A stretch of DNA of 64,000 nt from an uncultured Planctomycetaceae bacterium (GCA_964619675.1 CAZUEO010000003.1:56186-120185); one strand, 5' to 3'; shown: positions 2,826-44,641, counted from the stretch's first letter. The notes: generated from the letters alone by a model not told the origin. A program made the numbers and translations.

Positions 2826-2830
2826 GCATT

Positions 2831-3241
2831 ATGGTCGATACCCTAACAAAGGAACAAAGGAAGTATTGCATGTCAGAAAACAAAGGTAAAGATACAAGTC
2901 CTGAATTATTTGTACGAAAATTAATCTCCTTACAAAAATTCCGTTACAGTTTACACGGAAAAGGTTTACCGGGTCGTCCTGATATAGTTTTTCTCAAGAG
3001 AAAAAAAGTTATTTTTATTAACGGCTGCTTCTGGCATCGCCACACCTGCAAAAAAGGCCGTTCAATACCCGCAACAAGAAAAAAATTCTGGAAGCAGAAA
3101 TTTAAAAGAACTATCGAACGAGATAAACAAAATTTAAAAGCCCTGAAAAAACTCGGCTGGAAGGTTTTGGTCATCTGGGAATGTCAAACCAAAAAATCCG
3201 AAAAAATTGTCGATAAAATCTCAACTTTCCTTAAAAAGTAA
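2831..3241 (+). CDS. vsr: Very short patch repair endonuclease Vsr
   Basis: DTSPELFVRKLI...GLPGRPDIVFLKRKKVIFINGCFWHRH matches Vsr hallmarks (DT.PE, G.PD, F..GCFWH.H). Vsr genes classically accompany m5C MTases. Confidence 0.85.
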   Translation: MVDTLTKEQRKYCMSENKGKDTSPELFVRKLISLQKFRYSLHGKGLPGRPDIVFLKRKKVIFINGCFWHRHTCKKGRSIPATRKKFWKQKFKRTIERDKQNLKALKKLGWKVLVIWECQTKKSEKIVDKISTFLKK

Positions 3242-4619: not shown

Positions 4620-4691
4620 TACCCGGTGGTGTAATTGGTAACACAGAGGCTTTTGGTGCCTCCATTCCAGGTTCGAGTCCTGGCCGGGTAG
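4620..4691 (+). tRNA. tRNA-Gln (anticodon UUG)
   Basis: A manual cloverleaf fits: acceptor TACCCGG/CCGGGTA, D stem GTGT/ACAC, anticodon stem GAGGC/GCCTC with loop TTTTGGT (anticodon TTG), T arm CCAGG-TTCGAGT-CCTGG, discriminator G. Length is 72 nt and CCA is not encoded. Confidence 0.9.
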
Positions 4692-27317: not shown

Positions 27318-30300
27318 ATGGATACAATTACTACTGAAAGTATCATTAAGACTTCAAGTATAACTCCTTGGCCTAGAAAACTTTATCGTAATGCTGAAGA
27401 ATTCTGGAGGAATTCGCAAGGGTTTCATTACGCCTACCTTATATACCGCACTTTACGGGGCGACCATAAACGTACTTTTCAACCAGATGCCGTCTTTTAT
27501 GTTGGTAAATCGCCCGCGGCCTATCTGAAAAATGTGGATGAAATACGCGAAGAAGACGTAGGGCAATGGCAGCGATTTCTCTGGAACCAGGCCATTGTGC
27601 CAATGTTAATAATAAAATCCCCTATCAAAGTCAGAGTTTACACCGCTTATTCGCAACCCCAAAAATCAGATAGTACCGAAAAAATACAATCACTTCTTGA
27701 AGATACTGCTGACGCATTAAAACTTGATAAGTTGTGGACCGCTATCGAATCCGGCATGATTTACGAACTAAAACCTGAAGCTTTTAAAAGAGAACATGCA
27801 GTTGATCAATATTTACTTGATAATTTAAATGCGGCTGGCCAACTTTTAGCTAAAACACAACCAGGAAAAACCAAAGAAGCTAACGAGGAAAATCTGGAAT
27901 TTGCTCATCATTTTCTTACGCGTTTGTTGTTTGTTTGCTATCTTATTGAAAGAGGGATGATTGGCAAACATTTTAATGATTCTGAACATGAATTTTTGAA
28001 AGAACTTCGACCGGCTACTGATGAAAAAAAAGGTTATTTCCTTAAGGACCTTTTTGAAGATCTCAATACCTATTCCAAAAAACGAGAGGCTTTATGCCGT
28101 ATATTTGGTTATGTAAAACGGACATTTAATGGCAGTTTGTTTCCAGAAAGTATTGCAACAGAAAAGGACAGATATACGGATGATTTTATTAAAATAGTAG
28201 ATGATTTTCTTCACGGTCATGAACTTAGAACTGGGCAAAAGCTCTTAGGATTTTGGGCGTATGATTTTAGTGTAATTCCGATTGAAACTATCAGCGCAGT
28301 ATATGAGAGTTTTCTGGGAGAACAAGGAGAAATCAAAGAAGTTCTTGGAGGGAAAAATTCTAAGAGAACAACCGGAGCTTATTATACGCCGTTGCATTTG
28401 GTAGAACTGACCGTAGATATCGCTTTGGAAAAAATCAAAAATAAAAAGTCAATCCATAAACTCAAAATACTTGATCCGGCCTGTGGTAGCGGAGTCTTTC
28501 TTGTTTCATTATTTGGTCGAATGGCCGAGAGTCTTCGTCGTCAAGAAACTCAGACTAAAGGTATTAATTGGGCACGAAAACTATTACCGAAGTTACATCA
28601 GTTATACGGCATAGATATTAGCCAAACAGCTTGTCATATCACATGTTTCAGTCTTTATCTGGCTTTATTAGAGCAGCTTGAACCCAGTGATGTTGAGTAC
28701 CTCCACGAACATGATGAGAAACTCCCGCCTCTATTAGCAAATACAAGGCCGGATAGCTGGGATACGGTCTATCCTGGTAACTTATTTAATACTGAACTTT
28801 CTTTTAAAGAAAAAGATTTTGATATTGTTATCGGTAATCCACCATGGGTAAGCCGGGGAAATCAAAAAGATGAACATTTTCTTAAATGGCTGACTTCTAA
28901 AAAAAATACTGATATATATGGCCCTGAAAAACAAATTGCTCATGGCTTTATGTGGGAAGTTCCCAAATATCTTTCTGACTCTGGGATTGCTTGTCTTTTG
29001 CTGCCAACTACTGTATTGCTCAATAACCATACTAACCAGTTTCAAAAAGAATGGTTTAAATCTGTTACTGTTGAACGGGTTGTCAATTTTTCAGACCTTC
29101 GGTTTATTTTATTTAAAAGCGCAATACATCCGTGCGTTGCAATCAGTTTTAAGTCTGTAAAATCAAATCCTGAGAGTATTATCCGTTATGAATCTCCTAA
29201 AACAGATATTCGCAGCCAAAAAGGTGGCCCTGTTTATATTCGCGAGGAAGATACAACTTGCTTGTATTTGAAAGAAATTACATTTGCAGCAGCTAATGAT
29301 TATGCGCCTACCGTTTGGAAAACTCATTACTGGGGTTCTTGGCGGGATCAGAGACTCTTGTCGCGTTTAATGGATTTTAATAAACTTTCTGACTTGGCCG
29401 GCGAAATAGGAAAACATAAAAAATGGATTAAAGGACAGGGCATACAAGTTGGTGGGGGAGATCCAAACCCTGTATGGTGGAAACCTTCAACTTTGTATCT
29501 TGATTCCGAAGTAGATTTTGACTTGATAATTTGTAAAGATGATCTTATAACCATAAAACAAGCTGAAATACCCATTGATACTGTACATCGTCCTCGTGAT
29601 AAAAAATTGTTTATTGGGCCTAAAGTTCTTCTCGCAAAGGGAAGCCGAAGAGTTTTCTTTTGTAATCAAGAAGTTGTTTTCAGAGATACTTTCACGTCTA
29701 TAACAGGCACCGAAAAAGACACATCTCTTTTACGGTTTCTTGCGGTGGTTTTGAATTCGGATTTAGTTTATTATTATCTGTTTCACACCAATTCAAACTT
29801 AGGAATCTATCGCTCCCAAACGTATCCTAATGAGTTTTTATCAGTTCCGTTTTTTCTGCCAGAAAATGCGGTTGCTCCCGATAGGGCTAAGGAAATCGTA
29901 TCTATAGTCGCAAAACAGGTTGGAGAGTTTGAAAATAGTCTTAAAAATAAGAAATGGTTTGGTGAAGAACAAAAGAGAAAAGATAAGGCCAATAAAATTC
30001 GTATAAGACTTGAGCTATTAATTCGCGAATATTATAACGTAGATAAATATGAATCAATGCTTATTGATGACACCTTAAATTTGGCTGTCAAAAGTTTCCA
30101 CCCTAGAGAAAACACAGCAAAAGCAAAAATTCCAACTCTTGTGGATGTTAATGATGAACAGGCAAAAGAATATGTAAATACGCTTTGTGAAATGCTTAAT
30201 AATTTTGGCGAAGGAAGTAATTTCAAGGTCAATGGAGAAATCATAAAAGGGCAACCTTATTCTGTTGTCCAAATATCTTTGGCAGAAACAATTGATCGAA

Positions 30301-30536
30301 ATGTGCCTGTTTTAGATGCAAATAAAAAACTTGAGCAGACTTTCGAAAAAATGAAAACGCTCCTGCAGAATAAACAGGGGCGGTTTGTATTCTGCCAGAA
30401 CTTAAAAGTTTTTGACGGTGATAATCTTTATATCTTAAAACCTATGCAAATGCGGTTTTGGTCTCGCACAGCAGCCTTAAATGATGCAGATGAGATTGCC
30501 GGTGCTATTCTGAATTCGAGGGAGAAAAATAAATAA
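27318..30536 (+). CDS. Large gamma-class N6-adenine DNA methyltransferase with built-in specificity domain (PglX / MmeI-family-like architecture)
   Basis: GAYYTP (aa 353-358), ILDPACGSGVFL (motif I), DIVIGNPPW (motif IV, nt 28836-28847) and the TaqI_C/Eco57I-type LRFLAVVLNSDLVYYYLF are present. The N-terminal helical region has FLTRLLFVCYLIERG and YDFSVIPIETISAVYESFL. The gene is AT-rich. Confidence 0.8.
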   Translation: MDTITTESIIKTSSITPWPRKLYRNAEEFWRNSQGFHYAYLIYRTLRGDHKRTFQPDAVFYVGKSPAAYLKNVDEIREEDVGQWQRFLWNQAIVPMLIIKSPIKVRVYTAYSQPQKSDSTEKIQSLLEDTADALKLDKLWTAIESGMIYELKPEAFKREHAVDQYLLDNLNAAGQLLAKTQPGKTKEANEENLEFAHHFLTRLLFVCYLIERGMIGKHFNDSEHEFLKELRPATDEKKGYFLKDLFEDLNTYSKKREALCRIFGYVKRTFNGSLFPESIATEKDRYTDDFIKIVDDFLHGHELRTGQKLLGFWAYDFSVIPIETISAVYESFLGEQGEIKEVLGGKNSKRTTGAYYTPLHLVELTVDIALEKIKNKKSIHKLKILDPACGSGVFLVSLFGRMAESLRRQETQTKGINWARKLLPKLHQLYGIDISQTACHITCFSLYLALLEQLEPSDVEYLHEHDEKLPPLLANTRPDSWDTVYPGNLFNTELSFKEKDFDIVIGNPPWVSRGNQKDEHFLKWLTSKKNTDIYGPEKQIAHGFMWEVPKYLSDSGIACLLLPTTVLLNNHTNQFQKEWFKSVTVERVVNFSDLRFILFKSAIHPCVAISFKSVKSNPESIIRYESPKTDIRSQKGGPVYIREEDTTCLYLKEITFAAANDYAPTVWKTHYWGSWRDQRLLSRLMDFNKLSDLAGEIGKHKKWIKGQGIQVGGGDPNPVWWKPSTLYLDSEVDFDLIICKDDLITIKQAEIPIDTVHRPRDKKLFIGPKVLLAKGSRRVFFCNQEVVFRDTFTSITGTEKDTSLLRFLAVVLNSDLVYYYLFHTNSNLGIYRSQTYPNEFLSVPFFLPENAVAPDRAKEIVSIVAKQVGEFENSLKNKKWFGEEQKRKDKANKIRIRLELLIREYYNVDKYESMLIDDTLNLAVKSFHPRENTAKAKIPTLVDVNDEQAKEYVNTLCEMLNNFGEGSNFKVNGEIIKGQPYSVVQISLAETIDRNVPVLDANKKLEQTFEKMKTLLQNKQGRFVFCQNLKVFDGDNLYILKPMQMRFWSRTAALNDADEIAGAILNSREKNK

Positions 30537-31172
30537 ATGGCAACAGATGGCAATAAGGCTCTTTGGGCAGAAACATTCGACCCTGGCCAGATTCTAAAAG
30601 TTCTTCAACTTGTTCTTGATTCTTGGAGGTCTTTTAAAATCCCCTTAAAGCTATTGGAAGTACCCATCACACGAAAATTCTGCGCTCATCTTAGAAATAA
30701 TCGAGATAAATCAATTCATTTCTTTCGTATTGACTGGGAATCCACTGAACTTGATGATAAAGGCCAAGAACTAGGAAGGATTGATCTGAAGTTTTCCCAA
30801 GGTTATGACGAAAAAGTTTGTTTTTCCATTGAATGTAAACGCCTTAGGGTTAATTTCGATAGTGGGTTTGATTCATTAGCAAACGAATATGTAGAAGATG
30901 GAATGTATAGATACTTTAATGGCCAATATGCGACAGGGCTGGATAAAGGCGGAATGCTTGGTTACGTAATGGATGGTGAAGTAAATAAAGCTATTGAAAA
31001 CGTTCGCAAAGCGGTTGAAGGTCGCAGGCTTGATTTACATATGGAACAAGATGGCACTCTTTGCAACTGCTCTATATTAGCTTCCAAACAGGTAAAAGAA
31101 ACTTTTCATAATCATGGCCCTGAAAATAAATTTCATATTTATCATATTTTCCTTCCCGTAAAAGCTGCGTAA
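30537..31172 (+). CDS. Mrr-like PD-(D/E)xK nuclease-fold protein (putative partner endonuclease)
   Basis: GRID83LKF...CFSIE99CK101RL fits the D...(E)xK core. Its ATG directly abuts the TAA of the upstream MTase gene. Confidence 0.5.
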   Translation: MATDGNKALWAETFDPGQILKVLQLVLDSWRSFKIPLKLLEVPITRKFCAHLRNNRDKSIHFFRIDWESTELDDKGQELGRIDLKFSQGYDEKVCFSIECKRLRVNFDSGFDSLANEYVEDGMYRYFNGQYATGLDKGGMLGYVMDGEVNKAIENVRKAVEGRRLDLHMEQDGTLCNCSILASKQVKETFHNHGPENKFHIYHIFLPVKAA

Positions 31173-31370
31173 ATCCGTGTCTAAAAGAAAGCTTCCTTGT
31201 CGAAATTACGATGAGTAGAAAAGAAAATTGTCTGCATTGATAATGACCCACCCCCATTTATTGTATCATTATGAATTGGAGTATCCTGCGTTAATTAGTC
31301 CTTCCTCCCCCATTTGGCGACTTGCTTGATTTCTCCTTTGTCCATGCCCCATATTCTATTTCAGTTCTGC

Positions 31371-31904
31371 TCACCAGTATTGCAGCAGAAGCGTTGGAAG
31401 ACCGAGACCGATTGCGACCCCGTAGATATAATCAAACCAGACGACTCTCAGGCCGTTGGCGATGTAGATAGCAATAACCAGCGGCAGGCTTATTATTGCC
31501 AGCGGGTGAAGGGTGACTGCGGCCTTCTTGGCCTGCTGAAACAGCAGGTGTGCATCGCCGATGGACGGAAACGCGTGCATCCCTATGGAAATGCCCAGCC
31601 ACAGCAGGACATAATAAAACTTGTTCACCACGCCGAATATGCGCATTGGAATCAGCACCGGGAAGCAGATAATTATGCAGAGCAGTGAGTTAACGATAAA
31701 CGGCCCGACTGAAATAAGAAACGTCGTTGTAAAGTTGTTTGTCTCTTCGTGTACAACATATCCTGCAGGGTCGCCGAAGCGGAAAAAACAAAAATCCAAT
31801 ACCGCAACGCCTCTCAGCCGGCACAGCAGCATATGCGCAAATTCGTGCACAATCACGCCCGGGAAGGTTAAAACAGTTATAATATATCCCGGAATTAAAA
31901 ACAT
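31371..31904 (-). CDS. Membrane zinc metallopeptidase-like protein (DUF3267-like, HExxH)
   Basis: VIVHEFAHMLLCR (HExxH) is embedded in about 5 TM helices. Confidence 0.55.
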   Translation of the reverse strand: MFLIPGYIITVLTFPGVIVHEFAHMLLCRLRGVAVLDFCFFRFGDPAGYVVHEETNNFTTTFLISVGPFIVNSLLCIIICFPVLIPMRIFGVVNKFYYVLLWLGISIGMHAFPSIGDAHLLFQQAKKAAVTLHPLAIISLPLVIAIYIANGLRVVWFDYIYGVAIGLGLPTLLLQYW

Positions 31905-31906
31905 AC

Positions 31907-32833
31907 TTACTCCTTTGCCGGCTCTTTCCAGCCGTCGGGAAATCTTTTCTGAAACTCGCTGCGCGTGATAATCTCGCGGGAATAGAGACGATGAAGAATT
32001 CTCCGTTCGTATTCACTGAAATACGGGTCTGCTTTTGAAAGCGTTTTTGCCTTGTCCAGAATCTCGAGCGATTTTTTTCTGAACTGCTCGTCGCCTGTTA
32101 CGGCAAATTTGCATGCGTAGGCCGAGGCAACCTGACCGCAGTTGGTAACGTCATCGGGGTTTATGTTGTAATTTTCAATCGCCATGGCCAAAAATCGGTC
32201 GTAGTCTTTGTTGTCGAATGCCACGCCAATTTCTGCTGCTATTGCAAGCTGGTCCAGTGTTTCATTTAATCCCTGCGGCAGCGATGAACTCCGGCACGAG
32301 TTAATCACTTCCAGCGCCTCTGCGGGCCTGTCCTGCCCCAGCAGCAGAATCGACTGGTAAAGGGCTGCCATTGCGAGAAGTTCGCTGTTTTCCGGGACGT
32401 GCGCGGATGCCGAATCCATCAGTTCTGCGGCTTTTTCAAGGTCGTTTTTGTAAAAAGCCCTGACTGAACTTCTCATCTCGACGTAGGCCTGTATAAACCT
32501 TATATTCCAGACCAGTGCGCAAGCGACCAGGGCAAACATAATGAAAAGAAAAACCTTGACCCAGTGAGGAAAAGGACGGTGTCTGAAAAAAGTCTCGCAC
32601 TGCAGGCACACGGGCAGTCCTGCAAGCATAGGCAGATGCTGCTGGTTATGGTCTTTTCCACAGTTAAAGCATATTGTAGGGTCGATTTGCTGCTTAACAG
32701 ATTTGATGTCGATGTCTTTTTGCTCCGAGGCGGCTTGCTCGCCGCAGACCCTGCACAAGACGACAGCGTTTATCCTGAATGTCTCATTCATCGGAAATTG
32801 TTGGCCGCAATTTTCACACTTGACTGTCTGCAT
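31907..32833 (-). CDS. Zinc-ribbon / single-TM / helical-repeat protein
   Basis: There are three CxxC pairs (CENCGQ, CRVCGE, CFNCGK...CLQCE), one TM helix, and a TPR-like C-terminal half. It lies 2 nt upstream of the metallopeptidase gene. Confidence 0.5.
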   Translation of the reverse strand: MQTVKCENCGQQFPMNETFRINAVVLCRVCGEQAASEQKDIDIKSVKQQIDPTICFNCGKDHNQQHLPMLAGLPVCLQCETFFRHRPFPHWVKVFLFIMFALVACALVWNIRFIQAYVEMRSSVRAFYKNDLEKAAELMDSASAHVPENSELLAMAALYQSILLLGQDRPAEALEVINSCRSSSLPQGLNETLDQLAIAAEIGVAFDNKDYDRFLAMAIENYNINPDDVTNCGQVASAYACKFAVTGDEQFRKKSLEILDKAKTLSKADPYFSEYERRILHRLYSREIITRSEFQKRFPDGWKEPAKE

Positions 32834-32928
32834 TAGCCGAGTCCCTGAACCTTATTTACAATGGAATAATAGAGTTGTCACTAAAAAAAATCCTGATTTT
32901 AAATTTCCTTATGACTGTAAATTAATTC

Positions 32929-32957
32929 TTGACAATAGCCGATATGTATATTATACT
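32929..32957 (+). promoter_or_regulatory. Near-consensus sigma70-like promoter of ilvBN (TTGACA - 17 nt - TATACT)
   Basis: The -35 is at 32929-32934 and the -10 at 32952-32957. This leaves a ~195-nt leader before the ilvB ATG at 33160. Confidence 0.45.
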
Positions 32958-33159
32958 TGTTAAATTACAGGCTTGTCCGCTTTGAGGCGGAAAGTTGTCC
33001 CTGAGACACGCGTAGTGCTGTGATTATGGCGCTGCGGCAGGACGCAAATCCTGGTTCGACAGGCTGTGAGAGTTCGTTGCCTTACGGTCGGCCGGTCAGA
33101 AATGCCCAAAAGAGCCGCGGTTAGCTGGAATAACTGAATAGTTTATCAGGAGTAAAAAA

Positions 33160-34896
33160 ATGAAGAAAAATCCTTCACAGGACAGTTCCCGCCAAAGTCC
33201 ATCCGATTTTCCCATCAAGACCGGTGCTGAAATTATCGTCGAAACGTTGATTGAGCAGGGTGCCGATACAATTTTCGGTTATCCCGGCGGGGTTGTATTA
33301 CCCTTGTTTGACAGACTCTATGATGCGCCTATCAGGTTTATTATTCCTCGCCACGAACAAGGTGGCACCCATATGGCGGATGGCTACGCACGAGCAAGCG
33401 GTAAAGTCGGAGTTATTATTGTCACAAGTGGGCCGGGCGCGTGCAATCTTACTACAGGTATTGCAAATGCGATGATGGATTCTGTGCCGATAGTTGCGCT
33501 GACAGGACAGGTTCGAACAGAACTTATCGGCAACGATGCATTTCAAGAAGCCGACACAACCGGTATTACCAGGCCGATTACTAAGCATAATATGATTGTT
33601 AAAGATGTTAAAGACCTGCAACAGATGATTCGTGAGGCGTTCTATATCGCCAAAACCGGCCGGCCAGGGCCGGTGCTTATTGATATTCCTGTCGATATTG
33701 AAGTTGCCAAATGTCAGTTACAACCTCTAAAGGAAATCAGTCTGCCAGGCTATAAGCCTCCGCAGAAGGGCCATCTGCGCCAGATAAAAATGGCGGCACA
33801 GGCTATAGACAAATCTGACAAACCCGTGCTTTATGCCGGCGGCGGAGTTATTGCCGCCGATGCCGCTAAAGAACTGCACTCCTTTGCACAGAAAGCCAAT
33901 CTGCCTGTAACAACGACACTCCTTGGGCTCGGCAGCTACGACCAGAGCCGGCCGGAGTCGCTCGATATGCTGGGTATGCACGGCACAGCTTATGCCAATT
34001 TTGCAGTTCAGGAATGCGACCTGCTAATCGCGGTCGGTGCGCGTTTTGACGACAGGGTAACAGGCAAAGTCAAGACCTTTGCGCCTAATGCGAAAATCAT
34101 TCATATCGATATCGACCCGAGCAGCATCAGCAAAAATGTCGCTGTCAATATACCTGTCGTCGGCGATGCGAAGTTTATCCTTGCCGAGCTGGCAAAAGAA
34201 GTTAAACATAAGGAAAGAAAAGAATGGTTTGACAAAATCGCGGACTGGAAAAGACGTTACCCGCTGCGATACGACACGAGAAGTGCTGGTTTAAAGCCGC
34301 AATATGTTATTGAACAGCTTTGCGAGGCTGCAAAATCAGAGGCTATAGTTGTTACCGGCGTCGGTCAGCATCAGATGTGGACTGCCCAGTTTTATAAGCA
34401 TAGTAAGCCGAGGCACTTTATAACCTCTGGCGGGCTCGGCACTATGGGCTTCGGACTGCCTGCTGCGATAGGTGCTCAGGTTGCCAGGCCGGATGCTCTG
34501 GTTATCGCTATTGACGGCGACTGCAGCTTTAATATGACCCTTACCGAAATCAGTACAGCAGTCCAGTACGAATTGCCCATAAAAGTCTGCATCATCAATA
34601 ACGGTTATATGGGAATGGTCCGTCAGTGGCAGGAACTGTTTTACAACAAGAGATACTCGAAAACCCATATAGACAATCCGGAATTTGCCGTTGTTGCGCA
34701 GGCTCTTGGCGCAGTTGGAATTGCCGTTGAGAAAAAAAGCGAAGTCAAATCCGCTATCGCAAAAATGCTTGCGGAAAAGAAGCCCTGCATTGTCGATTTC
34801 AAAGTCGAACGCGAAGAAAACGTCTGGCCGATGGTCGCGGCAGGAAAGAGCCTGCATGAAATGGACGGACTCGATATCTTCGAAAGTATGGCATAG
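33160..34896 (+). CDS. ilvB: Acetolactate synthase large subunit
   Basis: The thiamine-PP enzyme has GYPGG, GPGACNL and the TPP motif GGLGTMGFGLPAAIGA...DGDCSFNM. Confidence 0.95.
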   Translation: MKKNPSQDSSRQSPSDFPIKTGAEIIVETLIEQGADTIFGYPGGVVLPLFDRLYDAPIRFIIPRHEQGGTHMADGYARASGKVGVIIVTSGPGACNLTTGIANAMMDSVPIVALTGQVRTELIGNDAFQEADTTGITRPITKHNMIVKDVKDLQQMIREAFYIAKTGRPGPVLIDIPVDIEVAKCQLQPLKEISLPGYKPPQKGHLRQIKMAAQAIDKSDKPVLYAGGGVIAADAAKELHSFAQKANLPVTTTLLGLGSYDQSRPESLDMLGMHGTAYANFAVQECDLLIAVGARFDDRVTGKVKTFAPNAKIIHIDIDPSSISKNVAVNIPVVGDAKFILAELAKEVKHKERKEWFDKIADWKRRYPLRYDTRSAGLKPQYVIEQLCEAAKSEAIVVTGVGQHQMWTAQFYKHSKPRHFITSGGLGTMGFGLPAAIGAQVARPDALVIAIDGDCSFNMTLTEISTAVQYELPIKVCIINNGYMGMVRQWQELFYNKRYSKTHIDNPEFAVVAQALGAVGIAVEKKSEVKSAIAKMLAEKKPCIVDFKVEREENVWPMVAAGKSLHEMDGLDIFESMA

Positions 34897-34900
34897 AGAA

Positions 34901-34938
34901 GTTATCAGTTATCAGTTATCAGTTATCGGTTATCGGTT
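34901..34938. repeat. Perfect heptanucleotide tandem array (GTTATCA)x3 (GTTATCG)x2 GTT
   Basis: It was read directly from the 66-nt ilvB-ilvN spacer. A related array lies at 35486-35514, after ilvN. Confidence 0.95.
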
Positions 34939-34962
34939 AAATTTTGCCGAAAGGGCAGAAAG

Positions 34963-35463
34963 ATGAAACATATAATAAGCGCATTGGTTCAGAACAAGCC
35001 CGGCGTGCTGGCTCACGTGGCAGGGATGTTCGCGGCAAGGGCCTTTAATATCGATTCACTCGCTGTTGGCAGAACCGACGACCCTGCTCTTAGCAGAATG
35101 ACGATAGTCGTTGTCGGAGACGATAAAGTGGTCGAGCAGGTCCGCAAACAGCTTGCAAAGGTTATAGATGTCGTAAAAGTGCAGGATTTCTCAGGCAGAG
35201 AAGTAATAGCACGGGACCTGATGTTAATATGCGTTCATATACCGCCTGAGAAACGGCCTGAGATACTTGCGCTTGTCGAGATGTTCAAGGCAAAGGTTGT
35301 CGATATAGGCCAGAGATTTGTTATGGTTGAAGTAGTCGGGCCGGAAGATAAAATCGAGGCCTTTGTCGAGGCCTGCAGGCCTTATGGCGTGAAAAATCTG
35401 GCGCGAACAGGTACAGTAGCGATGGGCAGATTCGATAGGCAGGAAGTCGCAGATAACGAATAA
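34963..35463 (+). CDS. ilvN: Acetolactate synthase small (regulatory) subunit
   Basis: The ACT domain begins HIISALVQNKPGVLAHVAGMFAARAFNIDSLAVG. Confidence 0.9.
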   Translation: MKHIISALVQNKPGVLAHVAGMFAARAFNIDSLAVGRTDDPALSRMTIVVVGDDKVVEQVRKQLAKVIDVVKVQDFSGREVIARDLMLICVHIPPEKRPEILALVEMFKAKVVDIGQRFVMVEVVGPEDKIEAFVEACRPYGVKNLARTGTVAMGRFDRQEVADNE

Positions 35464-35900
35464 GAACACAGAACTCAGAAGAAAAGTTATCAGCAACTCA
35501 GTTATCAGTTATCGGCAATTCACCACAGACCTGTCCCGAGCGCAGCCGAGGGAGCCACGGAGATGTGAAAAATTCCGAATTACAAAGCACGAATTCCAAA
35601 TCAATGTTGAATTACCGAAATTTAAAATTGAACGCTGCGATAATTAGTCGCCAGTTGCTGGTCGTTAGTCGCTAGTAAATAATATCAAAAATCAAATATA
35701 AAAATGACAGTTGCTGACGAGGGCTGCGATGAGGAACAGACAGAATTACGCAGTCCCTAAAGGACGGAGTAAAAATAAAAGATTACCGAACCGAAGGCAG
35801 CAACTGCAACCATCGCAACGCTACGCGAATGTTTTTTCAATAGAACCAACGGCCGCTAACTTTTCACCACAGAGAACTCAGAGAAAGAAGTAATTATAAA
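35464..35900. repeat. Heptanucleotide-register spacer sharing modules with 3500-3845
   Basis: Runs include aattccg/aattaca/aagcacg/aattcca/aatcaat and tcgccag/ttgctgg/tcgttag/tcgctag. Positions 35644-35710 match the reverse complement of 3741-3814 at roughly 90% with one 5-nt indel. Positions 35867-35883 match the reverse complement of 3521-3537 at 16 of 17. Confidence 0.7.
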
Positions 35901-35965
35901 AAAATAGGTGCGGGGTTTTCTTTTTCAGGTTTTCAACAGCCCCACTGTCCTTATTTATTTTGATT

Positions 35966-36373
35966 TTATTTTTTTCTTATTTCTTCAAGTGTGTCGTGAA
36001 TGCGAAAAATTACAACTAACCATTCGCAAGCTATACGAATACCAACCACATTTATTAGCCAAAAGAGAATAGCAATTGCCAATGTCAACAATTTTGAATG
36101 TGTAGTAGAATAATCAGAAGATGTTGCCCATAACAAAGCACCCAAACCGGTTATAGTACACCATACCGGGAAAATCACAATAATAAGTTTTGTTGTCAAC
36201 ATTACGCGAAAAGTCCAAAAATCTTTGGAGAGTTTACTGAGGCTATTCTCGTCATATATGTTTTTACCACTCGCAAGGAAAGATTGATTACACTTTGAGC
36301 ATTTTACTGTTTTACCCACATAAATATCAGGAACATCAAAGGTTATGATACACTGTGGACATTGAACTTTCAT
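35966..36373 (-). CDS. Zinc-ribbon plus DUF4282-like membrane protein
   Basis: MKVQCPQCIITFDVPD...VKCSKCNQSF is an MJ0042-type zinc ribbon. It is followed by two or three TM helices and R..CEWLVVIFRIHDTLEEI. An ATG with AAAGGAGAG upstream is preferred over TTG 36388. Confidence 0.55.
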   Translation of the reverse strand: MKVQCPQCIITFDVPDIYVGKTVKCSKCNQSFLASGKNIYDENSLSKLSKDFWTFRVMLTTKLIIVIFPVWCTITGLGALLWATSSDYSTTHSKLLTLAIAILFWLINVVGIRIACEWLVVIFRIHDTLEEIRKK

Positions 36374-36555
36374 ATTCTCTCCTTTCAAATCATAAAATAT
36401 TTTTTATACTGGTTTTGTATAAGAAGATGATATTTTAAAATATCATTCCTACGGTTGGATAAATTGTATCAAACAATAAATAACTACTCATTTTGTAGTA
36501 TTTCAAAATTTAACTGGATCCGTTGTTGCCCCTCAAGGAAACGGAGAAATTATAT

Positions 36556-36628
36556 CCTTAAATTCGGTGAAAAACAAGGGAAAATAGCGTAGAGCGGACA
36601 GCGTATAGCGTATAGGGGATAGGGATTA
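36556..36628. repeat. Direct repeat copy A (CCTTAAATT...AACAAGGGAAAATAGCGTAGAGCG...GGGGATAG)
   Basis: It aligns with 36813-36876, offset 257 bp. The tail is heptamer-periodic (gcgtaga/gcggaca/gcgtata/gcgtata/ggggata). Confidence 0.8.
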
Positions 36629-36629
36629 T

Positions 36630-36658
36630 TTGCAAATTTTCAGTCTATATCGTATAAT
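36630..36658 (+). promoter_or_regulatory. Near-consensus sigma70-like promoter (TTGCAA - 17 nt - TATAAT)
   Basis: The -35 is at 36630-36635 and the -10 at 36653-36658. No ORF follows. Confidence 0.45.
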
Positions 36659-36664
36659 ATATAT

Positions 36665-36763
36665 GTGAGCGGGTAATTCCTGCGGTGGGTGACTTGAGCA
36701 CCGGCGTGGACGCGTGTGCGGCTGGACTTAAGGGACATCGGCATTGCAGGCGCCGCTTTTTTT
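36665..36763 (+). ncRNA. Candidate ~100-nt small RNA
   Basis: It starts just after the promoter above. The 5' segment GCGG(36669-72)/CCUGC(36679-83) can pair with the 3' segment GCAGG(36746-50)/CCGC(36753-56), which is directly followed by T7 (36757-63). There is an internal hairpin GGUG-ACUUGAG-CACC. Confidence 0.3.
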
Positions 36764-36812
36764 ATGCGCTCAAATATTACAAATCTTCAATTCAATTCAG
36801 TATTTGCGATAG

Positions 36813-36876
36813 CCTTAAATTGGGCGGGAAACAAGGGAAAATAGCGTAGAGCGTATAGGGTTTAGGGGATAGATTA
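36813..36876. repeat. Direct repeat copy B
   Basis: See copy A. The two copies bracket the promoter/RNA/terminator unit. Confidence 0.8.
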
Positions 36877-36973
36877 CCGGCAACGGGTCCGTGAAATCTA
36901 TTAAAAAACAGATTTCTCCGCTTCCCCCCGCCTTCGCGGGGGTTCGGTCGAAATGACATTTCTACAAAGCAAT

Positions 36974-37921
36974 TTAATTATTGAGTGTCAGCCGTTTTCT
37001 CAGCACCTCATATATCATCCAAAAACTGAGTATTGACAGCAATGCCCATGAAGCGAGGAAAAACAAGACCTCAAATATACTCGCATTCCTTGCAATATCG
37101 CCGGCTGTTATTAGTATAATGCCGAATATCAGCCAGCTTAAAGAAATCAATGCTGAAATTATGTAAAGAATCGAAAGATGCAAAGGGTTCTGTTTTGCCC
37201 ACTGAGCCAGAAAAGATAAACAGGATTCGTTATGCAGTAACCTTTCTTTTGCCGTTCTAAGATACAAAAGGCATACCAGCCAAAGAGAAGATACGGTGCA
37301 GGACCCGAAAAATATCGCTGTATATATAATTATATCCCGCTTCTTTTGTCCGCTATTGTCCGGCATAAAATCAATACATAGACTTTCTTTCTGCCAGCCT
37401 TCAAGTGCTGCTCCGGATTCGAGCTGGTCGCGCTCCTGCGGTGTTATTGTCTTTTTAGGGCCTGTATTAAACGTTTTAAGCTCAAAAGGATAGATATTCC
37501 CAAAAATTCCCCCTGGTATTTGAATGAGAAGATATTTGGTGTGGTCTAACGGCCTGACATTAAATGTGATTGTGAATAATTTCTCCTCTTGCGGTCTTAG
37601 ACTTTTACAATGTGTGGGAGACAGACCCGTAACGTTAAGGTCATTGCCGAAATTATCCATTACATAAATCCCAAAAACGTATCTGCTGGGTTTTAGGATT
37701 TTGTTTTTGGCTAATACTTTTACATTTAATGCTATGTAAAATTGGTCCGCTTTGCGGTATATCTGATTAATAGAAATTGAGACATCGTTTTCACGATAAG
37801 TGTCTGAAGTGTACAGCGGTAATGGAGAGCTACTATCAAGGCCTGCTGATGCGGCTGTGTAAATAACAAATACCGCTACAGCCGACAAGAACAAGAATAT
37901 ATATGTCTTCTTCGTTCTCAC
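36974..37921 (-). CDS. Orphan membrane protein: signal/TM, Ig-like (DUF4352-like) ectodomain, C-terminal multi-TM region
   Basis: It has a GTG start with AGGAG 10 nt upstream, a hydrophobic N-terminus, a beta-rich middle and about 4 C-terminal TM helices. I recognise no family motif. Confidence 0.45.
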   Translation of the reverse strand: MRTKKTYIFLFLSAVAVFVIYTAASAGLDSSSPLPLYTSDTYRENDVSISINQIYRKADQFYIALNVKVLAKNKILKPSRYVFGIYVMDNFGNDLNVTGLSPTHCKSLRPQEEKLFTITFNVRPLDHTKYLLIQIPGGIFGNIYPFELKTFNTGPKKTITPQERDQLESGAALEGWQKESLCIDFMPDNSGQKKRDIIIYTAIFFGSCTVSSLWLVCLLYLRTAKERLLHNESCLSFLAQWAKQNPLHLSILYIISALISLSWLIFGIILITAGDIARNASIFEVLFFLASWALLSILSFWMIYEVLRKRLTLNN

Positions 37922-37992
37922 TTCCGCAACTCCTCGCAGCTTGCCCGTGAGATACGCAGTTATCTCAATTCGGAGCCAGCCGCATAATATAT

Positions 37993-38020
37993 ATTATATC
38001 CAGTTTTTTTTAGGATTCAA
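37993..38020 (-). promoter_or_regulatory. Sigma70-like promoter on the minus strand (TTGAAT - 16 nt - TATAAT)
   Basis: Reverse-complement reading places the -35 at 38015-38020 and the -10 at 37993-37998, about 70 nt upstream of the GTG at 37921. Confidence 0.4.
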
Positions 38021-38541
38021 CAAAATTCTGGTTGTATTTATCCGAATAGTGTTTTAAGGCCCCGCAATGAGGCCATCCGACCCCCGGCTTTTCGAAAATA
38101 AACCACGCAGTTAGGGTTAACCGACGGAATAAAACCCCCCGATATAGCCAGGCAAAAACAATACCAATTTTATCCACAAATGGGAAAACCCAGTGGATTT
38201 TTTACAAAACGCGCAAAAAAAAACGTGCGCGTTTTGAAAATCTTAAAAAAATTTTGCCCTTATTTGACAAGGGTTTATGAAAAATCGACCCAGAATTTTT
38301 GCCGATTTTTTTGTAAAAACGCGCATTTTTTCAGGTAATACGGAGGGGGATGCTGGCCTGAAAGGCCAACATAGAGCAATCGAGAATCGAAAGTCGAGAG
38401 TTGAAATCCAGAATTCTCGATTGCGGTCAAATTTCGATTGTCGATTTTCGAAAAAAGGCAAATAGAAAGTCGGAAAGAATTGAAAAATGAACATTGAAGA
38501 TTGAAAATTTGGAGAATTAGCTAAAGGTGGAGAAATTTACT

Positions 38542-39189
38542 ATGTCAAAAATTAATCTTGCAATCCCGATTCCAACATTCATCGAAAGCATCGTCATTTA
38601 TTTTCTGCTGCGCTACAGGAAAAAGCATTGCGGCTATCCTTTTCGGAAAATCAGATTAATTCAGGCAAACCGCAGAGCAAAACCCATTTGTGCGAAAGTT
38701 GACCCGGACGATTATCAGACAGTTTCACAATACAATTGGCATCTTTATGAAAGCATCAGCAGAAATTACTATGCCGTCCGGTATGAAGAAAGAAGATATA
38801 TTAAAATGCACAGGGTTATTATGAACGCTCCTAAAGGTGTCATTGTTGACCATAAGGACGGGGATGGACTAAATAACACTAAAGATAATCTGCGTTTTGC
38901 GACATATGCCCAAAACAGCTACAACAAAAAGACAGGCAAAAACGGGAGTTCCAGATACAGAGGCGTCCATTTAATAAAAGAAACAGGAAAATACAGGGCA
39001 AAAATAAGTTATAATAGAATACGCAAACATTTAGGATATTTCGAAACGGAAGAAGATGCAGCGAGGGCGTATGACCGGGCTGCCAAAATTTATCACGGCG
39101 AATTCGCCATCCTGAACTTTGAGGACGTAACGAATCCCATTGCCAAATCGGCAGAAAACGAACCCTGCCCCCCGCATACGCGAGGGTAA
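38542..39189 (+). CDS. HNH endonuclease fused to an AP2/ERF-type DNA-binding domain (homing-endonuclease-like)
   Basis: The HNH_3 motif is HRVIM...VIVDHKDGDGLNNTKDNLRFATYAQN. The AP2 domain is SSRYRGVHLIKETGKYRAKISYNRIRKHLGYFETEEDAARAYDRAAKIYHGEFAILNF. ATG 38542 follows AAGGTGGAG. Confidence 0.8.
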   Translation: MSKINLAIPIPTFIESIVIYFLLRYRKKHCGYPFRKIRLIQANRRAKPICAKVDPDDYQTVSQYNWHLYESISRNYYAVRYEERRYIKMHRVIMNAPKGVIVDHKDGDGLNNTKDNLRFATYAQNSYNKKTGKNGSSRYRGVHLIKETGKYRAKISYNRIRKHLGYFETEEDAARAYDRAAKIYHGEFAILNFEDVTNPIAKSAENEPCPPHTRG

Positions 39190-39306
39190 ACTCCGTGTTG
39201 GCAGGGCTAACCGATAATAAATAAATTCACTTGCAAAAGAGGCAGTTTAGGGGTAAAAGCATACGAAATATGCGATAATCAATAATTGGATTAGGAGATT
39301 TTGAAA

Positions 39307-40308
39307 ATGGCAAAGATATATTATCGAAAGGATGCCCCAATCGGGCCGCTTAAGGGCAAAAAAGTAGCAGTAATCGGGTACGGCAGCCAGGGACACGCAC
39401 ACAGCCTGAACCTGCGGGACAGCGGTATCAAAGTGGCTGTTGCAGAACTTAAAGGCACCGCTAACTATAAACTCGCACAAAAGCACAAGTTCAAGCCGGG
39501 CGATATAAAGACGGCTATGAAAGGGGCGAGTTTGATAATCGTAACTGTGCCTGATGAAATGCAGGCTAAAGTTTATCAAGCCCTGATTAAGCCGAACCTC
39601 AAAGCGGGACAAACGCTCGGGTTCTGTCACGGCTTTAATATCCATTTTAAATACATTGTGCCGCCAGGGAATGTGAACGTTGTTATGATTGCGCCGAAGG
39701 GGCCGGGACATCTTGTACGCAGCGAATATGAAAAGGGCGGCGGTGTACCCTGTCTTGTGGCTGTCAAGCAGGATGCGACCGGAAACGCAAAGAAAATCGC
39801 GCTTGCCTGGGGCAACGGTATCGGCGGAGCAAGGGCGGGTATCATACAGACCACCTACAAGGAAGAAACCGAGACAGATTTGTTCGGCGAGCAGGTAGTT
39901 TTGTGCGGCGGGCTTACTTCGCTGGTTAAGGCAGGATTCGAAACGCTCGTCAAGGCGGGTTATCAGCCTGAGATTGCCTATTTCGAATGTATGCACGAGG
40001 TAAAACTTATCGTTGACCTTATGTATCAGGGCGGGATGAGTTATATGAGGTATTCAATTTCAAATACTGCGGAATACGGCGACTTGACGAGAGGGCCGAA
40101 AATCATAACCGACAGGACGAGAGCCGAGATGAAAAAAATCCTGGCTGATATCAGGAGCGGGAAATTTGCAAGAGAATGGGTAAATGAATACAAAAGCGGT
40201 ATGAAAAAATTCAACGCGCTCTACAAAAAAGACTATAACTGCAGGCTTGAAAAGGTCGGGCGAAACTTGCGAAAAATGATGAAATGGATTAACACGAAAG
40301 AAGTATAA
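39307..40308 (+). CDS. ilvC: Ketol-acid reductoisomerase
   Basis: [21 protein letters not shown] and the class I KARI C-terminal knotted domain are present. Confidence 0.95.
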
Positions 40309-40343
40309 CAAGAAAATAAAAAATCAAAAATAAAAATTAAGGA

Positions 40344-40370
40344 ATCCCGATAAATCGGGATGATTATTTT
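40344..40370 (+). terminator. Rho-independent terminator-like hairpin after ilvC
   Basis: ATCCCGA-taaa-TCGGGAT (40344-40361) is followed by a T-rich tract. This argues for ATG 40372 as the start of the next gene. Confidence 0.45.
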
Positions 40371-40371
40371 T

Positions 40372-41130
40372 ATGGAAAACAAAACCTTACGAATCTTAAA
40401 TTGTTTGTTGTTTTATAGTGTTGTTCCAGCCGTATTGTTTTGCGCGAGCTGCGGGGTTGAAGAGCCGCTTGAGAGGGTTAGGCCTGAGCCAAGGCCTTAT
40501 ACAAAGCAGCTACCCAATGCTTATGACAGAATCGCTCTCGGCAGGAGCACAAGCGCCGATGTGCTGGAGAGTATAAAACAATATAAGCAGGAATTTATAA
40601 GCCAGAGCGAAAGCGTCATTGCCAGCTACGGAGAAAAGAAAAAAACCTATCAGTTCTGGCTGACTATGGCTGCCTTTGACGAAGAAGAATTTACCGTGAC
40701 GAGAAAATATTTCCTGACGGTTGATGAAAAGCCGTGGCACATTGCCGCCGAAGGACAGAAGCTGCGGTTTGATACCGAGATGATTCTTGACGAAGAAACT
40801 TTATCGGAGGCTTATACGAGCGAAAATCAAAAGCGGATTGCAATACTGAAAAAGGTGCTCCAGAACACGCGCGACGACATTTCGCAGATTCGCCAGGAGA
40901 GCAAAATTCCCGATACGGCGGTAATGATGATAAATCAGATGCTCGAAAGAATACTTTACGTGCTGAGTCAGTCGCCTGCCCTTGCGGAAAAACTCGACCG
41001 GCCGGAAGGCTTGGAGTTCGACCATCTGACGATGGGCAAGGGACGAGTGGGAATGAAACTTGAAGATGAAAATGTTGCCGTAGTCAGGATAAGAATCGGC
41101 AGATTGTGGCAGATATGGAAGAAAAAGTAA
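40372..41130 (+). CDS. Hypothetical lipoprotein
   Basis: The signal peptide has a lipobox-like VLFCASCG. No recognisable domain is present. Confidence 0.5.
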   Translation: MENKTLRILNCLLFYSVVPAVLFCASCGVEEPLERVRPEPRPYTKQLPNAYDRIALGRSTSADVLESIKQYKQEFISQSESVIASYGEKKKTYQFWLTMAAFDEEEFTVTRKYFLTVDEKPWHIAAEGQKLRFDTEMILDEETLSEAYTSENQKRIAILKKVLQNTRDDISQIRQESKIPDTAVMMINQMLERILYVLSQSPALAEKLDRPEGLEFDHLTMGKGRVGMKLEDENVAVVRIRIGRLWQIWKKK

Positions 41131-41926: not shown

Positions 41927-42994
41927 TTAAAGCCAGTTCTTCCTTTTAAACATAAAGAGCATCGCTGCAATAATGGCTATTATTATAATCCAGAAACCTG
42001 CCGGGTACATCCACCTGGAATGCAGCTCGGGCATATGCTCGAAGTTCATTCCATAAACGCCTGCGATAAAACCGAGGGGAATAAATATAGTGGCTATTAT
42101 CGTCAGGACCTTCATTACCGAATTCATTCTGTTACTGACCCCTGAAAGGTATAAGTCCATCATGCCGGAGGCCATATCGCGAAAACTTTCCAGCGTGTCA
42201 ATAATCTGTATCGTATGGTCGTAAACATCGCTAAAGTATATTTCCGTATTTTTGGTTATCTGTGCCGTTTCACTTTTTCTGAGACTGTTGACGACTTCGC
42301 GCAGCGGCCAGATGGATTTTCTCAGGATAATCAGTTCGCGTTTTATCGAATGGATTTTCCGCACGGTTTTTTCCGTCGGGTCTGAAACGACTTCGTCCTC
42401 GAGTGATTCTATTATTTCGCCGAGTTTTTCGAGTATCACAAAATAATTGTCAACTATTGCGTCAATGAGCGAATAGACAAGGTAATCGGCCTCCATTTTT
42501 CTAATGCGTCCCTTGGCCTGGCGAATGCGCTCGCGAATAAAGTCAAATACGTCTCCGGGCCTTTCCTGAAAGGACAGGACGAAGTTACCGCCCAAAATCA
42601 GGCTGACCTGCTCGCCGTCAATGGTTTTGTCCGCATCGTTAAACGTCAGCATTTTGAGAACAACAAAGATATAATTTTCAAATGTCTCAATTTTGGGTCT
42701 CTGGTCCGTATTGACAATATCCTCGAGAGTCAGAGGATGAATGTTGAAGAAGCGGCCTGCCTGCTCGATTGTGCCCATATCATCAAGGCCGTCGATGTTC
42801 AGCCAGGTAACGGATGCTCTTTCCTTGAGGTCGCGGCACTGCTCAATGCTGCTTAGCTGTTTTTCCTGAAAGTCATCGTTATTATAGTCAATGACGGTGA
42901 TTTTTACGTCGCCTGTTCCTGCCCGGCCTATGTGGACGAGGGTTCCCGGCAGCAGACCTGATTTTTGGGAGCGTTTTTTGAACAGTTTTTTCAT
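41927..42994 (-). CDS. corA: Magnesium/cobalt transporter CorA
   Basis: The YGMNF (GMN) motif lies between two C-terminal TM helices. Confidence 0.9.
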   Translation of the reverse strand: MKKLFKKRSQKSGLLPGTLVHIGRAGTGDVKITVIDYNNDDFQEKQLSSIEQCRDLKERASVTWLNIDGLDDMGTIEQAGRFFNIHPLTLEDIVNTDQRPKIETFENYIFVVLKMLTFNDADKTIDGEQVSLILGGNFVLSFQERPGDVFDFIRERIRQAKGRIRKMEADYLVYSLIDAIVDNYFVILEKLGEIIESLEDEVVSDPTEKTVRKIHSIKRELIILRKSIWPLREVVNSLRKSETAQITKNTEIYFSDVYDHTIQIIDTLESFRDMASGMMDLYLSGVSNRMNSVMKVLTIIATIFIPLGFIAGVYGMNFEHMPELHSRWMYPAGFWIIIIAIIAAMLFMFKRKNWL

Positions 42995-44391: not shown

Positions 44392-44561
44392 GTCAATCAA
44401 AAATATTTAAAAATTTTGCTTACAGCTGGTCGGGATTGTTAGTAAATTTTTTTATTTTTCTTAAAGCAGGTGAGTTAATAGGGTAACAGCAAGTGTTATG
44501 AAGAATTCACAGGAAATAAAGAGGAGATAAGAAAGTAAGATAAGGATGTGCCAGAGCGCAT

Positions 44562-44596
44562 AAAAAAGGTCTCTGCGTCCCCTAACGACAGAGACC
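44562..44596 (-). terminator. Rho-independent terminator (minus strand)
   Basis: An 8-bp stem GGTCTCTG/CAGAGACC (44568-75 / 44589-96) is followed on the minus strand by U6 (A-run 44562-67). Confidence 0.5.
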
Positions 44597-44641
44597 CAAG
44601 ATCAATATATGAGCAGTCCCCCCACAGAAATTGATAAAATC

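Follow-up and report, generated by a model that had tools for sequence, protein, structure and literature searches.

A composite spacer with an HNH-AP2 gene separates ilvBN from ilvC in an uncultured member of the Sedimentisphaerales

The ilvBNC operon, encoding acetohydroxy-acid synthase and ketol-acid reductoisomerase, occurs in many bacteria. We analysed a stretch of 64,000 nt of DNA from an uncultured Planctomycetaceae bacterium (GCA_964619675.1 CAZUEO010000003.1:56186-120185, called the window in the following), whose genome we place in the Sedimentisphaerales (Planctomycetota). The window carries the same three genes in the same order and on the same strand, and ilvC has retained its ribosome-binding site (RBS); unlike in the operon, ilvN and ilvC lie 3.8 kb apart and ilvC has a promoter-like box of its own. 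This separation, claimed in a preliminary description of the window, is confirmed by the end of ilvN at 35463 and the start of ilvC at 39307. The spacer between them measures 3843 nt and carries three open reading frames (ORFs), dispersed repeats and a unit bounded by a promoter and a terminator that resembles a small RNA (sRNA) gene. Gene coordinates were taken from an ORF list and a Pfam scan. The features of the locus are:

33160-34896, plus strand: ilvB, with Pfam TPP_enzyme N, M and C domains; left flank
34963-35463, plus strand: ilvN, with ACT_AHAS_ss and ALS_ss_C; left flank
35464-36970: fast-turnover slot specific to the window lineage, with dispersed repeats, orf140 and the sRNA-like array
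35480-35515 and 35646-35704: short dispersed repeats
35708-35806: 99-nt dispersed repeat with 9-bp inverted ends, CAGTTGCTG...CAGCAACTG
35966-36388, minus strand: orf140, a small membrane protein with an MJ0042-type zinc ribbon and DUF4282; GC 34%
36549-36577, minus strand: promoter-like box in repeat D1 facing orf140, TTGTTT-17-TATAAT, as read from the sequence
36552-36615 and 36809-36872: D1, 64-nt direct repeats flanking the sRNA-like unit
36630-36772, plus strand: sRNA-like unit with TTGCAA (36630)-17-TATAAT (36658), a hairpin of ~100 nt (36666-36765), a T-run and a conserved tail
36971-38086, minus strand: orf315 block, with a membrane protein gene (36974-37921) and the promoter TTGAAT-16-TATAAT (38020-37993)
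38197-38541, plus strand: conserved leader of the HNH-AP2 gene, with the palindrome CGCGCA (38210)/TGCGCG (38226), a CCTTATTTGACAAGG box and a second CGCGCA (38320)
38542-39189, plus strand: HNH(HNN)-AP2 gene, 215 aa from ATG; 220-aa ORF from GTG at 38527
39220-39306, plus strand: ilvC 5' box, with -35 TTGCAA (39231-39236), 17 nt, -10 TAAAAG (39254-39259), then the RBS AGGAG
39307 (ATG) to 40308, plus strand: ilvC, with Pfam KARI_N and KARI_C; the ORF opens at 39301; right flank

The repeat-rich DNA of the preliminary description is present in the form of 64-nt direct, 99-nt and short dispersed repeats, as is the bounded non-coding unit with its TTGCAA-17-TATAAT promoter, ~100-nt hairpin and T-run. 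The same description regarded the spacer as a horizontally acquired insertion. According to this explanation the whole 3.8 kb would be a single AT-rich segment that was delivered fairly recently into an intact ilvBNC operon by the homing-endonuclease gene, and both the low GC content and the presence of an HNH homing-endonuclease-like gene speak for it. The spacer is indeed AT-rich: its GC content is 39.5%, while that of the whole window is 45.8% and that of ilvB, ilvN and ilvC 47.7-49.3%. However, this is mainly because 47% of the spacer is non-coding (11% in the whole window), and non-coding DNA has almost the same GC content in the spacer (39.9%) as in the window (40.2%). GC at third codon positions (GC3) is 0.405 for orf315 and 0.43 for the HNH-AP2 gene, both within one standard deviation of the mean of the window genes (0.484, standard deviation 0.085). 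The spacer as a whole does not have the atypical gene composition of a genomic island: orf140, with a GC3 of 0.29, is its only compositionally foreign gene and resembles the restriction-modification islands of the window (0.28-0.36). It is these two low-GC islands of the window that have a clearly foreign composition. The first (467-3241) contains a Dcm-type C5 methylase, an HNH endonuclease and Vsr and lies ~1.4 kb upstream of tRNA-Gln (4620-4691), and the second (27318-31172) contains a 1072-aa Eco57I/MmeI-like restriction-modification enzyme (27318-30536) and a 211-aa ORF.

Marks of an insertion event were not found at the junctions either. Target-site duplications, for which the positions around 35464 and 39250 had been proposed, and terminal inverted repeats were absent at both ends, the longest word common to the two junction zones being 8 nt. 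No integrase or transposase was matched in Pfam, NCBIfam or PHROG, the only tRNA of the window is the one at 4620-4691, far from the spacer, and a search of the non-coding spacer parts for pseudogene remnants of the genes found at this place in relatives gave none.

The ilvN-ilvC arrangement was compared at 80 ilvC loci from a scan with IlvC, one genome per species; the nearest relatives are metagenome-assembled genomes (MAGs) of Phycisphaerae/Sedimentisphaerales with 94-77% identity. ilvN lies upstream of ilvC on the same strand at 61 of the 80 loci, with a median gap of 152 nt. For 58 of these 61 the gap is at most 700 nt, in agreement with the earlier statement that ilvB, ilvN and ilvC are contiguous in many bacteria (58/80 loci), and it amounts to 1.1, 1.6 and 8.9 kb in the remaining three. 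ilvBN is inverted at two loci (L002 and L016) and lacking at 11 loci that have at least 3 kb of upstream sequence. Compared to this median, the 3843 nt of the window do not correspond to an operon of one strand with short spacers. L003 and L005, which according to their IlvB, IlvN and orf256 identities are sister to the group of the window, L002 and L004, have a gap of only 35 nt. Contiguity is therefore the ancestral and common state, and, in view also of the 35-nt gap in the sister clade, the 3.8-kb split is derived. An intact ilvBNC in the sister clade is also what a single insertion presupposes. Further members of the split group were added through exact-protein look-ups with IlvN, the orf315 homologue and HNH-AP2. 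The arrangements found are:

L172/L171 (found by IlvN, 91%): ilvB-ilvN-(four small minus-strand genes)-orf315 (minus)-HNH-AP2-ilvC
L168/L169 (found by the orf315 homologue, 73%): ABC-F-rubrerythrin-orf315 (minus)-HNH-AP2-ilvC-orf253
L165 (found by HNH-AP2, 66%): 372-aa ORF (minus)-HNH-AP2-ilvC-orf252-...
L164 (found by HNH-AP2, 70%): ilvB-ilvN-ABC-F-SBP (minus)-RhoN (minus)-HNH-AP2-rubrerythrin-NifU
L004 (IlvC scan): ilvN-(three-gene cassette)-(two sRNA-like units)-HNH-AP2-FtsX (minus)-rubrerythrin-(type II methylase and endonuclease)-ilvC
L002 (IlvC scan): block of the L164 type, inverted and without HNH-AP2
L174 (found by IlvN, 89%): ATPase gene between ilvB and ilvN

From 38204 onward, L165 and the window are collinear at ~82% nucleotide identity. 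Gene synteny thus largely refutes a single insertion: orf315 and HNH-AP2 together in L172 and L168/L169, and HNH-AP2 in L165, occupy the same place with a divergence like that of the flanks, and in addition the nearest relative has other genes in the left 1.5 kb. We therefore consider one recent acquisition of the entire segment very improbable. The preliminary description had named relatives with the same content and native-like composition as evidence that would speak against an acquired segment, and L172, L168/L169 and L165 provide such evidence in part. Native-type genes, namely an ABC-F ATPase and a rubrerythrin-like gene, are found in the gap of relatives as well.

Two side observations concern the same loci. 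In L174 (5858-9606) ilvB and ilvN are themselves separated, by a 415-aa ATPase_2/AAA gene, so that a split of this pair occurs in the group as well. Judged by IlvC, L002 stands nearer to L003/L005 (96%) than to L004 (93.7%), its clade-mate, although IlvN and orf256 place it with L004; recombination within ilvC or rate variation may be responsible.

As the source is a metagenome-assembled contig, a chimeric assembly or a binning error could in principle have joined ilvBN and ilvC via an unrelated spacer. In favour of this, the Logan contig L001, an independent assembly from the same organism that is 100% identical over 31122-35801, ends at 35801, inside a repeat. However, L172 from an unrelated sample shows the same order ilvB-ilvN-cargo-orf315 (minus strand)-HNH-AP2-ilvC, and L004 links ilvN to ilvC via an island containing HNH-AP2 on a 722-kb contig. 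Since both connect the genes independently, such an artefact is extremely unlikely.

The comparisons instead point to an old mosaic around HNH-AP2, not to one recent foreign insertion. The same block boundaries, at 35459/36971, 38086 and 38197-38206, reappear when the spacer is aligned with different relatives or with a paralogue, and they divide the spacer into at least four modules with different histories: the fast-turnover slot, the orf315 block, HNH-AP2 with its conserved leader, and the promoter-like box of ilvC. We consider it probable that the spacer represents a variable region of composite make-up, situated at a junction prone to recombination and vertically inherited within a subclade of the Sedimentisphaerales. 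An old, vertically inherited mosaic would make this a fairly ordinary break-up of an operon at a recombination hot spot.

The orf315 block is collinear in L172 and L168/L169 (82-84% nucleotide identity) and in L170 (75%). The membrane protein has no Pfam match, but describing it and the orf140 product as orphans was not accurate: orf315 has 15 homologues besides itself, of which the named one and every syntenic copy belong to Phycisphaerae/Sedimentisphaerales, several in the same position, and orf140 belongs to a broad domain family. Compared with L172, L168 and L170, the synonymous divergence (dS) of orf315 is 0.17-0.47 at a ratio of nonsynonymous to synonymous divergence (dN/dS) of 0.5-0.67, whereas ilvB, ilvN and ilvC of the same genome pairs show a dS of 0.8-1.3 and a dN/dS of ~0.05. 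With a dS 3-5 times below that of the flanks, the orf315 block would coalesce more recently than these, while its protein evolves fast. The low dS could arise from lateral spread of alleles or from constraint on synonymous sites.

The preliminary description of the third ORF as a homing-endonuclease-like HNH-AP2 gene held. Its product matches Pfam HNH_3 with 31.6 bits (cut-off 24.8), and the best PHROG family is PHROG 99 ('HNH endonuclease', 4e-42). The AP2 domain scored 28 bits with the single sequence, under the Pfam cut-off of 33.3; the family profile identified this C-terminal DNA-binding domain, hitting solved AP2/ERF domains at 1e-25 to 1e-9 and I-HmuI (1U3E) at 1e-4. The motif VDHKDG..NN...NLR aligns to I-HmuI residue for residue, with 'GVIVDHKDGDGLNNTKDNLRFAT..QN' against 'GLVVDHKDGNKDNNLSTNLRWVT..IN' in a phmmer comparison with 1U3E, and the residues H104, N112 and N116 of the HNH/N nuclease motif are invariant in 26 family members. 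The protein does look like a phage-type HNN-AP2 endonuclease of the I-HmuI type. It is under purifying selection (dN/dS 0.14-0.31).

The family comprises at least 365 homologues, with several copies on single contigs. Most hits are unnamed metagenome proteins; those with useful names all come from Sedimentisphaerales, Phycisphaerae or Planctomycetota, except one labelled Proteobacteria. A literature search found no paper linking Sedimentisphaerales with AP2. The genes are situated in intergenic positions between conserved genes (ilvC, recR and others); a paralogue of the same organism, 53-56% identical to the window protein, lies 29 nt upstream of recR. We found no strict preference for orientation or neighbour, as downstream genes are on either strand, although the upstream gap is long and the downstream gap short.

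Upstream of HNH-AP2 lies a conserved leader (window 38197-38541, L082 4842-5165 and 14 further loci). Its two CGCGCA boxes are 110 nt apart in the window and 110-114 nt apart across the 16 loci (126 nt in L135), with protein identity down to 37%, and it also holds a CCTTAT..ACAAGGACTTA box. RNAalifold found no covarying pairs in 15 leaders, and a structured RNA was therefore rejected; the leader is read as a DNA-level element instead, operator-like or a recognition site, with the boxes as putative binding sites of the AP2 domain. The window leader shares 92.7% identity with the leader of its in-genome paralogue and only 80.6% with that of the L165 orthologue, and the L168 leader is different altogether. 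A leader that is closer to an in-genome paralogue with 53-56% protein identity than to an orthologue suggests leader exchange or gene conversion within a genome. We also searched for AAACGCGCA elsewhere as a possible cleavage site. It was enriched (7 matches vs 1.3 expected), four copies being outside the leader and one of these inside ilvB; they showed no pattern.

Between the window and L165, the dS of HNH-AP2 is 0.85 and that of ilvC 0.79, and at the nucleotide level the module is about as similar as its flanks, so that HNH-AP2 would be a long-term resident of the junction. Nevertheless, several observations suggest lateral exchange around it. The flanks of L165 and L168 are similar (ilvC 97.6% at the amino acid level, dS 0.33-0.44; orf256 dS 0.20), whereas their HNH-AP2 alleles at the same site are more diverged (66.7% identical, dS 0.82). 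L164 carries a close allele in another context, as part of a group of SBP, RhoN and HNH-AP2 enclosed by ABC-F and rubrerythrin; the corresponding stretch of its close relative L002 measures 360 nt, and HNH-AP2 is absent there together with two other genes, not by itself. Finally, the orf315 block seems younger than its flanks.

Spacer anatomy, synteny, unequal module divergence and conservation of the endonuclease motif are matters of observation, from which the cause of the turnover can be addressed in a tentative way. Nicks or breaks made by HNH-AP2, or recombination between the dispersed multi-copy leaders, could possibly make the junction recombinogenic and so account for turnover and inversions. 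The main competing explanation regards HNH-AP2 as a domesticated AP2-type regulator of itself, and perhaps of ilvC, that acts via the CGCGCA boxes; the variable content would then reflect neutral decay of gene order, independent of any nuclease. Several homologues are named AP2-type transcription factor by NCBI, and the vertical inheritance with a low dN/dS fits a regulator, as do the two invariant boxes ~10.5 helical turns apart, which lack RNA covariation and look operator-like. Genes of native type (ABC-F, rubrerythrin) in the same gap of relatives and the lack of ilvBN upstream of ilvC in several other lineages are in keeping with neutral decay. However, invariant catalytic His and Asn residues that align with I-HmuI would not be expected in a protein that only binds DNA, breakpoints recur at both edges of the module, and the same-site alleles of L165 and L168 differ more than their flanks. 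On balance we consider the regulator rather unlikely.

Some points weigh against a composite region shaped by an active endonuclease. DNA cutting or mobility of HNH-AP2 is presumed from resemblance to characterized proteins, not from direct evidence, and purifying selection and synteny fit a domesticated regulator equally well. The within-genome paralogues are old (~50% amino acid identity), so there is no sign of recent HNH-AP2 transposition. All relatives are MAGs or metagenome contigs, many of them short, and some absences are possibly assembly breaks. The order of events was derived from a small number of genomes, saturation is near for dS values of about 1, and the ilvC promoter is a consensus match only.

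For a composite, vertically inherited region, we propose the following course. An ancestral ilvB-ilvN-ilvC operon would have been broken once, in the ancestor of the group comprising the window, L172, L168, L165, L164, L004 and L002. ilvC would have kept its RBS and would now be served by its own promoter-like box. The free-standing HNH(HNN)-AP2 gene with its long leader lies directly upstream of ilvC, with orf315 divergent beside it, both being residents of the junction in several relatives. The 1.5 kb next to ilvN would act as a slot replaced from lineage to lineage, filled here by repeats, the AT-rich zinc-ribbon/DUF4282 gene and the sRNA-like unit, and elsewhere by four small genes, by ABC-F and rubrerythrin, or by a three-gene cassette. 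L004 additionally has a type II restriction-modification system and further genes between HNH-AP2 and ilvC.

The box TTGCAA-17-TAAAAG in front of ilvC is kept in the window, L165, L004 and L002, all of them split, and is absent from the contiguous L003 and L005, in which homology to the window begins at 39291, 16 nt before the ATG. ilvC therefore appears to have acquired, or to retain, its own predicted promoter in the split lineage. Co-transcription of ilvN and ilvC is unlikely, because 3.8 kb with two opposite-strand genes and a terminator-ended unit lie between them.

The slot next to ilvN has the variable content of a genomic island, as it differs in every relative. L172, the closest one, is collinear with the window up to 35459 and again from 36971, with four unrelated small minus-strand genes in between. 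The 99-nt repeat is 89.6% identical to a sequence in L104 (2220-2324) from the same metagenome, upstream of another HNH-AP2 paralogue. The orf140 product matches Pfam DUF4282 (6e-12) and the zinc finger TIGR02098; it has one close representative (58% identity) and 273 distant ones. Promoter-like boxes of the D1 type, in which the spacer is conserved as well (minus strand, TTGTYT-CCGCCCAATTTAAGG-TATAAT), recur beside divergent genes at several unrelated loci of the lineage (L165 1270-1296; L082 4706-4740; L004 3728-3760; L174 12966-13010).

The sRNA-like array (36552-36872) represents 1.5 units of a 257-nt tandem repeat. Each unit consists of the 64-nt D1, a perfect TTGCAA-17-TATAAT promoter and a ~100-nt hairpin with GAGCGG/CCGCUU as its closing pairs, followed by a U-run and a conserved tail. 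The ends of the hairpin RNA are conserved (GAGCGGGUAA ... CCGCUUUUUUUAUGCGCU), and its tip is variable. L004 (3728-4260) holds two tandem homologous units with 75-93% nucleotide identity, and several of the changes between units are compensatory; both genomes have the same promoter hexamers, and closing and inner stems are common to the three copies. RNAalifold predicted 36 pairs, six with changes on both sides, from these three copies of two genomes; the window copy has a fold z-score of -1.48. With a promoter of its own, a stable hairpin, a U-tract terminator and conservation in a relative, the unit at 36630-36772 has the features of an sRNA gene and is a predicted candidate for a new small RNA. 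Rfam gave nothing meaningful for 32500-40500 (E≤1), for the whole window (gathering threshold) or for the two elements alone (E≤10). A search with a covariance model (R1) through the window, a selection of ilvC loci, 80 HNH-AP2 loci and 11 extra syntenic ones (~0.9 Mb of related loci) detected no copy beyond the three; a role as general companion of HNH-AP2 was therefore rejected. A strong terminator hairpin with the same tail (TTTTTTATGCGCTC) as the unit at 36758-36771 lies upstream of nrdR at 44555-44620 on the minus strand. The ~300 nt preceding it are non-coding and structured-looking, with no Rfam match at gathering threshold.

Phages are a well-known source of free-standing HNN-AP2 endonuclease genes scattered over intergenic gaps. 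Dispersed genes of the HNN-AP2 type are among the six to eight HNH endonuclease genes of the Xanthomonas oryzae phages Xp10, OP1 and Xop411 (PMC2248197). Like these and I-HmuI (PDB 1U3E), the window protein has an HNH/N nuclease followed by an AP2 domain, its DH...N...N..NLR aligning to I-HmuI, and the Sedimentisphaerales family is likewise multi-copy and dispersed in gaps between conserved genes. In contrast to the phage genes, it is chromosomal in a free-living Planctomycetota lineage and consists of old paralogues (~50% identity) that are under purifying selection and stable at their loci over genus-level divergence. It also differs by a conserved N-terminal region and a leader of 200-350 nt with two CGCGCA boxes, and its endonuclease role is a putative one. 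To our knowledge, neither this N-terminal region nor such a leader has been described for HNN-AP2 genes.

Variable islets, recombination or integration hot spots between core genes that often hold defence genes, are commonplace, and so is the break-up of operons at variable junctions. The ilv junction resembles such islets in its conserved flanks ilvN and ilvC, the cargo that varies per relative, the type II restriction-modification system in L004 and the inversions anchored at the site. Unlike them, the window spacer has no integrase, tRNA or attachment-site repeats, orf315 and HNH-AP2 are stable, and some cargo of relatives is housekeeping-like (ABC-F). The locus is a new example of these known kinds, free-standing HNN-AP2 genes and variable islets, in an unusual host lineage; what is unusual is the chromosomal, multi-copy, long-lived HNH-AP2 family with its conserved two-box leader and a neighbouring candidate sRNA. 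A bolder reading, which we consider doubtful, would take the HNH-AP2 genes and two-box leaders of Sedimentisphaerales/Phycisphaerae as an undescribed, slowly moving chromosomal family of homing-endonuclease-like elements, with leaders homogenised by gene conversion and a nuclease that seeds islets and breaks operons such as ilvBNC, and the tandem units as a new lineage-specific sRNA family.

The split of the operon itself matters little, as the ilv genes are intact. The locus is a clean example in which AT-richness and an endonuclease gene hint at recent horizontal transfer while comparative data argue for an old vertical mosaic. Of wider interest is an expanded chromosomal HNH-AP2 family in an uncultured order of Planctomycetota with a conserved cis-element that appears to be homogenised within the genome. 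Such a family could offer a practical way to find out whether bacterial chromosomes, like phage genomes, are shaped by free-standing homing endonucleases. The candidate small RNA is of further, modest value.

Another indel is found near the ilv genes: a corA-like gene at 41927-42994, between orf242 (TrkA_C) and the ATP-cone/nrdR genes, is absent from the otherwise collinear L165 (5300-5356).

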